A stretch of DNA of 11,676 nt from a virus (taxonomy: Duplodnaviria > Heunggongvirae > Uroviricota > Caudoviricetes), in IMG/VR virus record IMGVR_UViG_2740892258_000014, one strand, 5' to 3'. This document shows positions 488 to 3,773 of this stretch, piece by piece. Positions within the stretch are counted from its first letter, which is position 1. Each line of letters starts with the position of its first letter. Under the pieces are notes generated by a model, which ran no database searches, was not told the DNA's origin, and was given only the letters and a program-made list of their open reading frames with translations. The translations under genes and the position numbers were made by a program.

Positions 488-1864
488 TCATACGTCCGCC
501 CCTTGTGCATATCGTCTGCCACGCGCAGCAGGCGCATTTGATGCTGTGCAAATCTGTCTGGCTTCATCCTGGTCACATGCAACAAAGTGTCCGTTGCAGA
601 ACCGCTGGTAAACCGTACCAAGTGAGCCAAAACGGTTTTTCGTCACAATGATTTCAGCAAATGGCGCGGCGCTACTGTTCTCGTCATATACCGCTTCCCG
701 ATAGAGCATGATGATTGAGTCTGCGTCCTGTTCAATGCTTCCTGAATCACGCAAATCTGCGTTTGTCGGGCGTTTGTTTGGTCGCTTCTCAACATCGCGT
801 GAAAGCTGACTTAGGGAGATAACAGGCGTTTTCAGGTCTTTCGCCATCGCCTTAAGGCTTCCTGAGATGTGGGCAATTGCGAGGTCGTTGCGATCTGCTT
901 TCGGCTTCTCAATCAGGCCAAGATAATCCGCCATGATGAGTGACAGGTTTGGATTTTCCTGTTTGTGTCGTTCTGCGATTGAGCGTATTTCTTCGACCGA
1001 TAACCGCGAGGCATCGACTACCCATACATCCAAATCTGCAAGCTGACTCATGCCGTTAGCAACACGCGCCCAGCCTTCGTCATCCATCGATGCAGGATTT
1101 CGCAGTACGCTAACCGACATCCTCCCGGCGTTGGCAATGCTTCGCTCTGCAATCTGCAATGCGCTCATTTCCATTGAGAAAATCAATACCCCGCGCCGGA
1201 CGTCAGAACCAGGAATAACGCGGCTTGCAACGCCTTCGGCAATCTTCAGCGCCAGCTCGGTTTTCCCCATACCAGGACGAGCAGCGATTATCACCAGGTC
1301 TTCTGCGTTCATCCCTCCGGTGATGGCATCAAGTTCTTCGATTCCGGTCTTCAGGGTATCGGACTCTTCTCCGTTCCTCAGACGCCTGTCAAGCGTGTCA
1401 GTGTAGTCAGTAATGATTTCCCCTAACCGTACAGGTTTAACCTCGTCACGGGGCTTTCTGATGGCTGAAAGACGCTTTACAAGCTCATCCATCGCCTGAC
1501 TCGATGCGTCGATGGTTCCGCTCTGAATTGGTTCACGCATTTCATCCATGATTTCCAGCACCAGATGGCGGTGATAGTTATCCGCGACCATTCCGGCATA
1601 TCCCTTCAGGTTTGCGGCACTCGGGCAGTTTTTGCTGGTCATCAGGATTGCGGTGAAATGCTCCTCTCCGCACGCCTCGGCAACCATCAGCGCGTCGATT
1701 AGGTTTCTGTTTCTCGCCTGCTTGCGAATAACCTCGAAGGCTTTCCGGTAGAGCGGAATTGAAAACGCTTCCGGCTCCAGCGTTGCAAGAACGTCACTGG
1801 CGGTTGGAGTTAATCCACCAATCAGCAGGCCACCGATAACGCTCGCTTCGATATCCTGTCTCAT
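488..1864 (-). CDS. Replicative DNA helicase, DnaB family (P22 gene 12-type phage helicase)
   Basis: 458-aa ORF; Walker A motif ARPGMGKTE, DnaB-like C-terminal RecA-fold motifs ([25 protein letters not shown]). Start ATG overlaps the stop of the upstream initiator gene (ATGA at 1861-1864), implying translational coupling. Confidence 0.88.
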
Positions 1865-2808
1865 GCAATCCCCCTGTCTGCAAACTTCCCTTCCCGAACT
1901 CCCGTTAACGAGTCTTCTCTCAGCAGGTAATCAAAATCAGCCGTCCAGCCCGTGTCGTTGTCTCCGAAGTAAAACGGCTTGGCCTGATGCACAAACGCCC
2001 TGACATACGCTCTGAAACCGTCCACGTTTGGCGTTTTCAGTTGCGGGATGATTTTCTTCAGGCGGCGTTTTCGTTTCTCGTTGACCGCAACAGCGTGTGG
2101 CAGTCTGTCACCGACTTCGGTGTTGTAGGCGTTCAGGAAGGATTCGTAGTCGATTCGTTCTGCCTTGCGACGTTCAGGTTTAACCTGCCCATCGCCTCCC
2201 CCATTGGGGGGTAGGGGGGTATTATTTATATTCTTGTTAATACCTTCTTGTTCATGATGTGCGGTTGTTTGTGCGGCTTCATGTGCGCTTTCATGTGCGG
2301 CATGTACGCTGAAAGCCGCGCTATTGCTGGCTTCATCATGTGCGGCATCATGTGCGGTTGTTTGTGCGGCTTCATGTGCGGGTAAATTGTCCATTTTTTG
2401 AGCATATTCATGGTAATTTGTGATGGTTATCACACGGCCTTTTTGCTTCTCTCCATCAATGGAGATCATCCCCTCTTTCACAAAAACCTGAAGCATCCGC
2501 TCAACCTGATCACGGCTTGCTGGCTTGCCATGTCTGTCGCATAACTGAAGACCTAAATCAGCTGCTGTCACAACCAGTTGACCGGGTTGCAGATGCCATT
2601 CATGACCTTTGAAATTCGCTTTGTATGGCTTTCTGGCGGCATTCAGGAGAAGGTTTTCCCACAGGGTGCGAAGATAAACATCTTTCGCCCATGACTGTTT
2701 CAGAATGCTCCGGTACAACGGAATGTAACCAGTTTTCTGGTTCTCCATCCTGTTGCTCCTGCGCTCGTGTGCGGCGCTGAAATCGTAGATTTTTGCTGTA
2801 TTGCTCAT
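1861..2808 (-). CDS. Phage replication initiation protein (lambda O-like) with a His/Ala-rich low-complexity linker encoded by the origin iterons
   Basis: 315-aa ORF starting [10 protein letters not shown] (compare lambda O MTNTAKILNF as I recall it); sits directly upstream of the helicase gene; contains the iteron array at 2254-2382 in its central linker, as in lambda O/ori. Confidence 0.8.
2221..2382. repeat. Putative phage origin of replication: iteron array plus adjacent AT-rich segment, embedded in the initiator gene
   Basis: TGTGCGG-core repeats begin at 2258, 2270, 2282 (variant TGTGCGC), 2294 and again at 2339, 2351, 2363, 2375, i.e. two clusters of four with an exact 12-bp period; 30-bp block TGTGCGGTTGTTTGTGCGGCTTCATGTGCG occurs twice (2259-2288, 2352-2381); AT-rich 2221-2250 flanks it. 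Confidence 0.7.
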
Positions 2809-2810
2809 AA

Positions 2811-3083
2811 CTACCTGCCTTGACGAAAGACCTTAAGAACATCGTTAAACTGACTTACGGATATGTCTTCTTTGAGAAGCTTTTCCAGAAATGCGTTTGG
2901 AATGAACGTATATCCCTCCTCTTTTGGTAGAGACGGGAGCAACGCCCTCGCCTCAGCCTTCAGAAGCTCAGTTCTGGCAACTTTCACAAAAGAGATTTGA
3001 GTTCTTTCATCAATGGAACGAAGGAAGCGCAAACGCTTAGCTTCTTTTTGTGTATCAGGTGGATTAAAGCCTTTGTTTCGCAT
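2811..3083 (-). CDS. Hypothetical 90-aa protein encoded between cII and the replication initiator gene
   Basis: In-frame ATG at 3083 inside track ORF 2811..3356 (MRNKGFNPPDTQKEAKRLRF...), GAGGT SD 7 nt upstream; stop TAG at 2811-2813 lies 2 nt from the initiator ATG (2808). The upstream part of the track ORF overlaps cII in another frame and is discounted. Confidence 0.5.
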   Translation of the reverse strand: MRNKGFNPPDTQKEAKRLRFLRSIDERTQISFVKVARTELLKAEARALLPSLPKEEGYTFIPNAFLEKLLKEDISVSQFNDVLKVFRQGR

Positions 3084-3092
3084 ATAATTACC

Positions 3093-3160
3093 TCGTTGGA
3101 TGTTGTTAAAATTCCATTTGTATTTGATCAGAACGCTCGGTTGCCGCCGGGCGTTTTTTA
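3093..3160 (+). ncRNA. oop: OOP-like antisense RNA overlapping the 3' end of cII (approximate ends)
   Basis: Plus strand 3128-3160 (CAGAACGCTCGGTTGCCGCCGGGCGTTTTTTATT) matches my recollection of the 3' end and terminator of lambda OOP RNA; perfect TATAAT at 3083-3088 upstream could be pO. Stem CGCTCGG/CCGGGCG followed by a T-run. Confidence 0.5.
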
Positions 3161-3693: not shown

Positions 3694-3773
3694 AGACTCG
3701 CTCCGAAATTAAAGAACACTTAAATTATCCACTAAAGGAATCTTAAGTCAAGTTTATTTAAGATGTCTTAACT
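3694..3773. promoter_or_regulatory. Right operator/promoter region (OR with pR toward cro, pRM toward cI)
   Basis: On the minus strand: -35 TTGACT (plus 3746-3751), 17-bp spacer, -10 ATAATT (plus 3723-3728), GGAG SD before the cro ATG. CTTAA(A/G) half-site motifs repeat at 3719, 3742, 3757 (inverted) and 3767. Confidence 0.65.

Follow-up and report, generated by a model that had tools for sequence, protein, structure and literature searches.

The stretch analysed here, referred to below as the window, is 11,676 nucleotides of tailed-phage DNA (Caudoviricetes; IMG/VR record IMGVR_UViG_2740892258_000014). Its minus strand encodes an O-like replication initiator of 315 amino acids (aa) and a DnaB-type helicase of 458 aa, and the initiator gene contains an array of short direct repeats (iterons). 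The early-right region of CUS-3 (CP000711), a P22-like prophage of Escherichia coli K1, and the window are 99.9-100% identical; the initiator gene agrees with the CUS-3 gene, annotated there as O, at 948 of 948 positions. The segment 2221-2382, within the linker-coding part of the initiator gene, is very probably the replication origin of this CUS-3-type module, to judge from the sequence comparisons described below. Its design is probably a bipartite, direct-repeat variant of the lambdoid in-gene origin, with eight head-to-tail 12-bp sites where lambda has four larger palindromic ones.

The gene order on the minus strand is a pR-like promoter, cro, cII, an open reading frame (ORF) of 91 aa, the initiator gene and the helicase gene, which is translationally coupled to the initiator gene; the positions of cro and cII in this order were taken from the CUS-3 annotation. 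Transcription from pR would reach the origin after passing through cro, cII and the 91-aa ORF.

The initiator gene and its repeat array

The initial annotation had called the gene an O-like initiator, and the profile searches agree with this: aa 20-132 match Pfam Phage_rep_O (PF04492; E=3e-15, 56.9 bits against a cut-off of 28.7), the protein matches PHROG 345, 'replication initiation O-like' (E=3.7e-100), and the DnaB-type helicase gene is next to it. No Rep_3-type Pfam match to the initiator was obtained, and a PDB sequence search with the initiator gave no match at E<=1. The AlphaFold2 model of the N-terminal domain (pLDDT 75) has helices at residues 44-59, 82-88 and 99-111 and a wing of two strands (residues 115-120 and 124-129). 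The predicted recognition helix comprises residues 99-111, with residue 100 second in the helix, and residue 82 caps helix 2. A fold search returned winged-helix regulators only (among them CRP, MarR and CodY), all of them weak matches and none at E<1e-3; a single winged-helix domain per initiator protein is predicted. In the full-length model, for which the alignment was shallow, pLDDT falls to 25-42 over aa 140-241, and the peptide encoded by the array is probably a disordered linker under low constraint. The first 10 codons of the gene (2779-2808, minus strand) encode a sequence very similar to MTNTAKILNF of lambda O; beyond it the two domains can hardly be aligned. The N-terminal end of lambda O is the recognition signal for ClpXP and, by analogy, fast turnover may be a conserved property of the initiator.

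Exact copies of TGTGCGG (CCGCACA on the gene strand) start at 2258, 2270, 2294, 2339, 2351, 2363 and 2375 of the plus strand, and a lone further copy starts at 2768. These eight matches compare with 1.2 expected, and eight or more were reached in 0 of 200 shuffles. The two clusters of four units with a 12-bp period that had been reported initially are thus real, with some corrections. Seven of the eight units carry the exact core that had been ascribed to all of them, and the unit at 2282-2288 reads TGTGCGC (gene strand GCGCACA), with one mismatch. The separation of 45 bp is correct when counted from unit start to unit start across the gap; the spacer itself, between the last 12-bp unit of one cluster and the first of the other, measures 33 bp (2302-2334). 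Start-to-start steps along the array are 12, 12 and 12 bp, then 45 bp, then again 12, 12 and 12 bp, and Tandem Repeats Finder assigned period 12 to both clusters. The units are direct repeats: 5-mers recur in direct orientation at distances of 5-20 bp 26 times in the array (3.0 in shuffles), and inverted 5-mer pairs at the same distances number 2 (1.0 expected). Dyad symmetry in the units and 24-bp composite palindromes were both looked for, and none was found.

The array is in frame with the 315-aa ORF and occupies codons 143-185, i.e. the linker-coding part, where it is translated into a regular x-x-A-H repeat. The 61-aa 'His-rich' ORF that overlaps it contains the same repeats in another frame and is regarded as spurious, as it had been at the outset; its composition follows from the repeat, which dictates the out-of-frame reading. 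The lone TGTGCGG at 2768, near the start of the gene, was considered as an autoregulatory site and was rejected, as it is unconserved in relatives and no more than chance would give.

The AT-rich stretch noted beside the array was also recovered, the GC content of 0.225 at 2220-2259 being the lowest of the initiator gene. The position of this stretch corresponds to that of the AT-rich regions of lambda and P22, and its segment GAACAAGAAGGTAATAACAA is conserved throughout the family regardless of the right-hand neighbour. A second, promoter-proximal AT-rich patch at 2383-2412 (GC 0.30, with an A6 tract) has the sequence GCTCAAAAAATnGACnATTTA, which is highly conserved across the family; the iterons are therefore bracketed on both sides by AT-rich DNA.

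Conservation and recognition of the repeats

Two sets of homologous loci were compared. The first consists of 80 near-identical loci from IMG/VR, with N-terminal domains 99-100% identical. The second consists of 61 loci from GTDB species-representative genomes of Enterobacterales, with N-terminal domains 44-87% identical to the query and with genera including Xenorhabdus, Yersinia, Citrobacter, Enterobacter, Pantoea, Sodalis, Proteus and Morganella. Units were assigned by position and not by match, and the two anchoring units were excluded from the wobble counts.

In almost all loci of the 61-locus set, the autocorrelation of the sequence immediately after the N-terminal domain is strongest at a lag of 12. 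Of the 52 species-level loci with CCGNNCA-type cores, 34 are arranged as 3+3 units and 18 as 4+4, never as 3+4, and the start-to-start step between the clusters is 45 bp in 52 of 52. The two clusters are always equal in unit number, and families with other cores have the same geometry. Copies of the core outside the arrays occur across the 52 loci at chance frequency. Among the 80 near-identical loci no gain or loss of a unit was found; nearly all show eight core positions in 4+4 register, the apparent losses are single-base core mismatches, and one locus is truncated. A neutral, functionless tandem repeat of the hypervariable or contingency type, maintained by slippage, might be suspected at such a locus, given that perfect short tandem units are slippage substrates and that homogenisation between the two clusters of a locus is frequent. 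However, the constant copy number among the 80 loci, the restriction to 3+3 or 4+4 in the 52, and the conservation of the cores while the bases between them drift make this explanation extremely unlikely.

Some database entries depart from the common form. A Martelella alba assembly (NZ_SZPQ01000041) contains, downstream of the N-terminal domain, at least three tandem copies of an 81-bp module of four 12-bp units plus the 33-bp spacer; this is an expansion at the level of the cluster, and the alphaproteobacterial host assignment is odd for an enterobacterial family. Most of the database homologues found (relatives of 2383-2808) are labelled 'partial' and have 146-248 aa, ending in or just past the iterons. 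Contigs built from short reads apparently tend to end at the repeat or at the module junction, which would conceal the origin in draft assemblies.

The closest precedent for the CUS-3 array is found in gene 18 of phage L (ST64T-like), in which six imprecise 11-bp repeats, TGTCCAACGGA, were described as the likely origin (Zaworski et al. 2020, PMC8022706); a putative ori is annotated at these repeats in the GenBank record (MW013503). Phage L gp18 is a distant homologue of the CUS-3 initiator, with 22% identity over the full length in BLASTP (E=3e-10). The comparison was made between 2254-2382 of the window and 1650-1745 of the locus L149. Phage L has three units, a 33-bp spacer with CCAGTAATGACGCGGCT in the same frame, three further units and then an AT-rich stretch; dyad symmetry is lacking there as well, and a DnaB-type helicase gene follows the initiator gene. 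It differs in the 11-bp unit, which has an unrelated core and is always present as 3+3, whereas the CUS-3 unit has 12 bp and the core CCGCACA. The 11-bp period and the 3+3 arrangement are kept in the relatives of phage L in IMG/VR (best 80 of 410, 67-100% identical). The phage L clusters are in phase (66 = 6 x 11), whereas the distance of 81 (or 69) bp in CUS-3-type loci is not a multiple of 12. A helical-phase rule linking the clusters was considered and dropped, since the cluster-to-cluster distances of 69, 81 and 66 bp (the last in phage L) share no phase.

The loci with CCGCACA iterons (group A) and those with CCGCGCA iterons (group B) differ by a synonymous change in the core, GCA versus GCG. 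In group A, wobble position 3 is C in 104 of 104 cases and wobble position 6 is A in 103 of 104; in group B, position 3 is C in 134 of 140 and position 6 is G in 133 of 140. At the four-fold degenerate sites of codons 21-135 of the same genes, identity is 46% within group A, 50% within group B and 39% between the groups. Non-synonymous positions of the units are more variable than the wobble sites (xCC versus xGC, GCG versus GAG). Because the core wobble sites are conserved above the non-synonymous positions, the reverse of what selection on the protein would give, the comparison supports a constraint on the repeat as DNA, with the peptide repeat as a by-product. Gene conversion at the level of the unit fails to explain the pattern, because the bases between the cores differ among the units of one cluster.

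Selection at the protein level only, for a flexible or metal-binding linker rich in histidine and alanine, would make the DNA periodicity the by-product instead. This would account for the regular x-x-A-H peptide produced by the in-frame repeat and for the recurrence of A-H in many homologues. It is nevertheless highly improbable: the core wobble sites are 99-100% conserved in group A, against the 46% at four-fold sites elsewhere in the gene, and the region is predicted to be disordered. The encoded peptides, moreover, vary freely under a fixed geometry (AH, AQ, AL, EH; PDEPCDKPSD; GVEGSDEPPVE). The 11-bp period of phage L-type loci is not a multiple of three and gives no peptide repeat, from which it follows that the peptide repeat of CUS-3 is incidental. 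The earlier statement that the DNA repeat is imposed on the protein is supported by the conservation of the core wobble sites; a period that is a multiple of three is inessential, as phage L shows.

The core of the units changes together with the N-terminal domain. The GCA cores go with D at residue 100 and A/P at residue 82, the GCG cores with H and S/T at these positions, with zero exceptions. Two loci, L110 and L100, are mutual nearest neighbours with 85% identity, yet they are unlike both in the core and in residues 82 and 100. In more distant clades the predicted recognition helix starts with SPQ, SAK, SKQ or TPK and the cores are CGATRA, GTCGAA/GACGAG, CGATACA and GGTAACA, and these cores occupy the same scaffold of 12-bp units with a 33-bp spacer. 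Recognition of the eight 12-bp units, with the core xCC GCA CAt, by the predicted winged-helix N-terminal domain of the O-like protein is well supported by these comparisons.

Modularity and the origin model

As far as the available combinations indicate, the array and the AT-rich stretch move together with the N-terminal domain, whichever C-terminal/helicase module follows. Klebsiella and Yersinia phages with N-terminal domains 80% and 75% identical to that of CUS-3 have CCGCAC iterons and the same AT-rich stretch; in these phages a lambda-type palindrome replaces the C-rich element, and the C-terminus is lambda-type, with a P loader. Conversely, the C-terminal domain is 97% identical in mEp213, HK544, 2851 and BTP1, whose N-terminal domains are unrelated, and 58-60% identical to that of P22 gp18. 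The same C-terminus, C-rich element and helicase follow HK97-type or P22-type iterons in mEp213, 2851 and BTP1, and P22, BTP1 and mEp213, all with other types of iteron, have a near-identical C-rich element after the AT-rich region. The module junction, by these alignments, is the right edge of the AT-rich stretch, which is classical behaviour of lambdoid origins.

The helicase (488-1864) has the length (458 aa) and the Pfam trio given for 'Eru2B' of Shiga-toxin (Stx) phages, and 'Eru2A' of these phages has 273 aa, the size of the mEp213/2851-type O, with no origin described (PMC8044961). From the matching length of 273 aa, the HK97/mEp213-type O is probably 'Eru2A'. In the CUS-3-type initiator, a different N-terminal/origin module appears to be joined to an Eru2-like C-terminal/helicase module.

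This modularity bears on what binds the array. The repeats might be the target of a host factor or of another phage protein, and not of the O-like protein, and the conserved core of the spacer could be such a site. The spacer is 33 bp long in all CUS-3-type and phage L-type loci, and its core is common to families with unrelated iterons. Against this, the iteron core changes with the N-terminal domain and is unchanged when the C-terminus or the helicase changes, and a host factor predicts a single core across all Enterobacterales; binding by such a factor is very unlikely. The spacer core, CCAGTAATGxCGCGGCT, stands in the same reading frame in the 12-bp (CUS-3-type) and 11-bp (phage L-type) families and is kept although the iterons are unrelated and the N-terminal domains only ~22% identical. 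The spacer also includes a degenerate ninth site, GCGTACA, at 2303-2309, which is an exact GCGCACA in some relatives. A dyad in the spacer, GAAGCC-N11-GGCTTC, showed no compensatory change beyond the consensus (permutation p ~0.055), and no claim is made for it.

Binding by the initiator could serve a purpose other than initiation. Plasmid iteron arrays have secondary roles in autoregulation, copy control and incompatibility, through titration or handcuffing (PMC5043065), and the true origin could then lie elsewhere. This is improbable, as the array lies directly beside the gene's most AT-rich stretch, in the order seen in ori-lambda and the P22 origin, as there are no core copies above chance near promoters or elsewhere, and as the module boundaries behave as in lambdoid origins. 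The preferred reading, that the array is the origin itself, was set against known systems as follows.

The initial annotation described a lambda-style ori, and its proposed comparison with the ori regions of P22/lambda-family phages was carried out. The description is apt for the layout: the order of iterons, AT-rich stretch and short inverted repeat is that of lambda and P22. It does not extend to the sites, which are direct repeats without dyad symmetry. As in lambda, the putative origin is contained in the initiator gene, in the interval between the parts coding for the DNA-binding N-terminal and the recruiting C-terminal domains, both initiators have a Phage_rep_O domain, and iteron specificity travels with the N-terminus. 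Sites of the size of a winged-helix domain number eight here (six in the 3+3 relatives), against four iterons of two half-sites each in lambda. O dimers bind the lambda iterons, which are inverted repeats (PMC7466680, PMC5043065); they are 18-19 bp long and start 20, 24 and 23 bp apart, so that the 12-bp spacing differs from lambda, as had been stated at first. Lambda has one array of imperfect inverted repeats, CUS-3 direct 12-bp units in two clusters with a fixed 33-bp spacer; the CUS-3 helicase is phage-encoded, whereas lambda P loads the host DnaB. Lambda O and the CUS-3 initiator align over only ~60 N-terminal residues (E=0.004). The lambdoid-origin iteron, an imperfect inverted repeat of ~19 bp at 20-24 bp spacing, is not present in the CUS-3 array, and inverted 5-mer pairs 5-20 bp apart, counted as above, number 8-9 in each of the lambda, P22 and mEp213 arrays, against ~1 expected.

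P22 (gene 18-gene 12) and the phages with HK97/mEp213-type O share with CUS-3 the C-terminal domain family (58-97% identical), the same DnaB-type helicase partner and, right of the AT-rich region, the C-rich element with its inverted repeat; in P22 a rep_origin is annotated at the corresponding position. Their N-terminal domains, however, are unrelated to that of CUS-3 at the BLAST level, and their iterons are four dyad-symmetric sites of ~19-20 bp (GGTAAA..TTTACC; TTAGC..GCTAA), unlike the CUS-3 units. The iteron origins of theta plasmids (P1, F, R6K, RK2, pSC101) resemble the CUS-3 array in their direct repeats, non-palindromic binding and AT-rich unwinding element alongside (PMC5043065). 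They differ in that the plasmid iterons have 17-22 bp and are phased at about two helical turns, and that Rep proteins have two winged-helix domains and belong to other families. The CUS-3 array has a period of 12 bp, and one winged-helix domain is predicted for its initiator.

In the proposed mechanism, the N-terminal winged-helix domain of the O-like protein would bind the eight direct units in the two clusters of four around the 33-bp spacer. One winged-helix domain spans ~11 bp of DNA. Because the units are direct, without dyad symmetry and about one helical turn apart, one domain would occupy each unit in head-to-tail register, and not a symmetric dimer on a palindrome; this arrangement is likely, if unproven. 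By analogy with ori-lambda, cooperative occupation of the array on negatively supercoiled DNA would distort it, and the AT-rich stretch at 2221-2253 would open. The C-terminal domain would then recruit the phage's own DnaB-type helicase, as in P22, and pR transcription through the origin would probably assist. With 10.5 bp to the turn, each unit is rotated by ~51 degrees relative to the one before it; the progressive rotation of bound initiators suggested at first would follow from this geometry. A straight protein array would then favour underwound DNA, which is speculation.

Several points weigh against the assignment of an origin. The literature searches found no experimental report of binding, unwinding or origin firing for the CUS-3-type module or its close relatives, and the sister repeats of phage L are themselves described as a 'putative origin'. 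Binding stoichiometry and orientation are read from the symmetry of the sequence alone. For the most part, if not entirely, the joint variation of the core with residues 82 and 100 is confounded with phylogeny. Shallow alignments underlie the structural models, which are of moderate confidence (pLDDT 75 and 53), and the fold matches are generic. Finally, the fixed 33-bp spacer with its conserved core is left unexplained by the origin model.

A broader and more tentative proposal takes the spacer into account. A large branch of the lambda O family might use single winged-helix domains head-to-tail on 11-12-bp units, one per turn. The equal half-arrays, exactly 33 bp apart, would be held by a central element with a role of its own, as a second-factor site or a hinge, and the 12-bp phasing would favour underwound DNA and so couple binding to the opening of the AT-rich stretch. 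This remains a doubtful extension of the origin model.

Coordinates, occurrence and neighbouring features

Coordinates of the features are listed in Table 1.

Table 1. Features of the replication module in the window
Feature	Position	Strand	Remarks
DnaB-type replicative helicase gene, 458 aa	488..1864	-	Pfam DnaB_C E=1e-77; DnaB N-terminal domain E=4e-13; PHROG 19
O-like replication initiator gene, 315 aa, with putative origin inside	1861..2808	-	ORF list, Pfam, PHROG, CUS-3 annotation
C-terminal domain of initiator, aa 190-315, presumed helicase-recruiting	1864..2241	-	identity to C-termini of other phages
C-rich element with short inverted repeat	2195..2219	-	gene strand CCCCCCTACCCCCCAATGGGGGAGG; left edge of C-terminal/helicase module
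AT-rich purine-skewed stretch, presumed DNA-unwinding element	2221..2253	-	GAACAAGAAGGTATTAACAAGAATATAAATAAT; 33 bp, 21% GC; codons 186-196
61-aa 'His-rich' ORF	2226..2411	-	iterons read out of frame; wholly within initiator gene; regarded as spurious
Iteron cluster II, four 12-bp units	2254..2301	-	cores 2294-2300, 2282-2288 (GCGCACA), 2270-2276, 2258-2264; codons 170-185
Central spacer, 33 bp	2302..2334	-	conserved core CCAGCAATAGCGCGGCT at plus strand 2314-2330; codons 159-169
Iteron cluster I, promoter-proximal, four 12-bp units	2335..2382	-	CCGCACA cores 2375-2381, 2363-2369, 2351-2357, 2339-2345; codons 143-158
N-terminal winged-helix DNA-binding domain, predicted	2413..2751	-	codons 20-132; AlphaFold2 model
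pR-like promoter, TTGACT-16-GATAAT	3724..3751	-	consensus scan, 10/12; function inferred

Of 5,426 complete E. coli genomes, 286 contain the module, and it is found in prophages of no fewer than ~60 species of Enterobacterales. At 98% identity it occurs in dozens of Stx2a-converting phages of E. coli O157, in which phage replication drives the toxin dose. A literature search retrieved no description of CCGCACA/TGTGCGG iterons, of 12-bp iterons in O genes, or of the origins of CUS-3 or of Stx 'Eru' phages. The origin variant is widespread but little noticed among enterobacterial prophages, including the Shiga-toxin phages, and the present assignment supplies an origin annotation missing from CUS-3 and related records. 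The lambda origin is the textbook model of DNA opening by an initiator, and lambdoid origins are usually assumed to be alike, with four palindromic iterons bound by dimers. The CUS-3-type module keeps the lambda layout, but its sites are short non-palindromic 12-bp tandem units in two rigidly spaced clusters, and this implies that protein and DNA assemble differently. The matched series of initiators and iterons, e.g. D100/GCA and H100/GCG, is a ready system for the study of the evolution of origin specificity.

The 91-aa ORF between cII and the initiator gene (2811-3086, minus strand) is unannotated in CP000711 and matches PHROG 2519, of unknown function (E=4e-56); in the Klebsiella and Yersinia relatives another gene (DNA-binding or KilAC antirepressor) takes its place. 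A strong hairpin resembling an intrinsic terminator, with a 12-bp stem followed by a T run, lies at 3130-3157 (plus strand). It is antisense to the cII region and stands where lambda has its oop terminator. An Rfam scan of the whole window matched no family.

Two perfect tandem duplications of exactly 56 bp each occur at 9444-9555 and 11003-11117, 1,562 nt apart. Neither is present in the GenBank record of CUS-3; apart from them, window and record are collinear. Because two independent duplications share an identical length, they look like unmerged k-1 contig overlaps, i.e. an artefact of joining in the assembly, and not biology.

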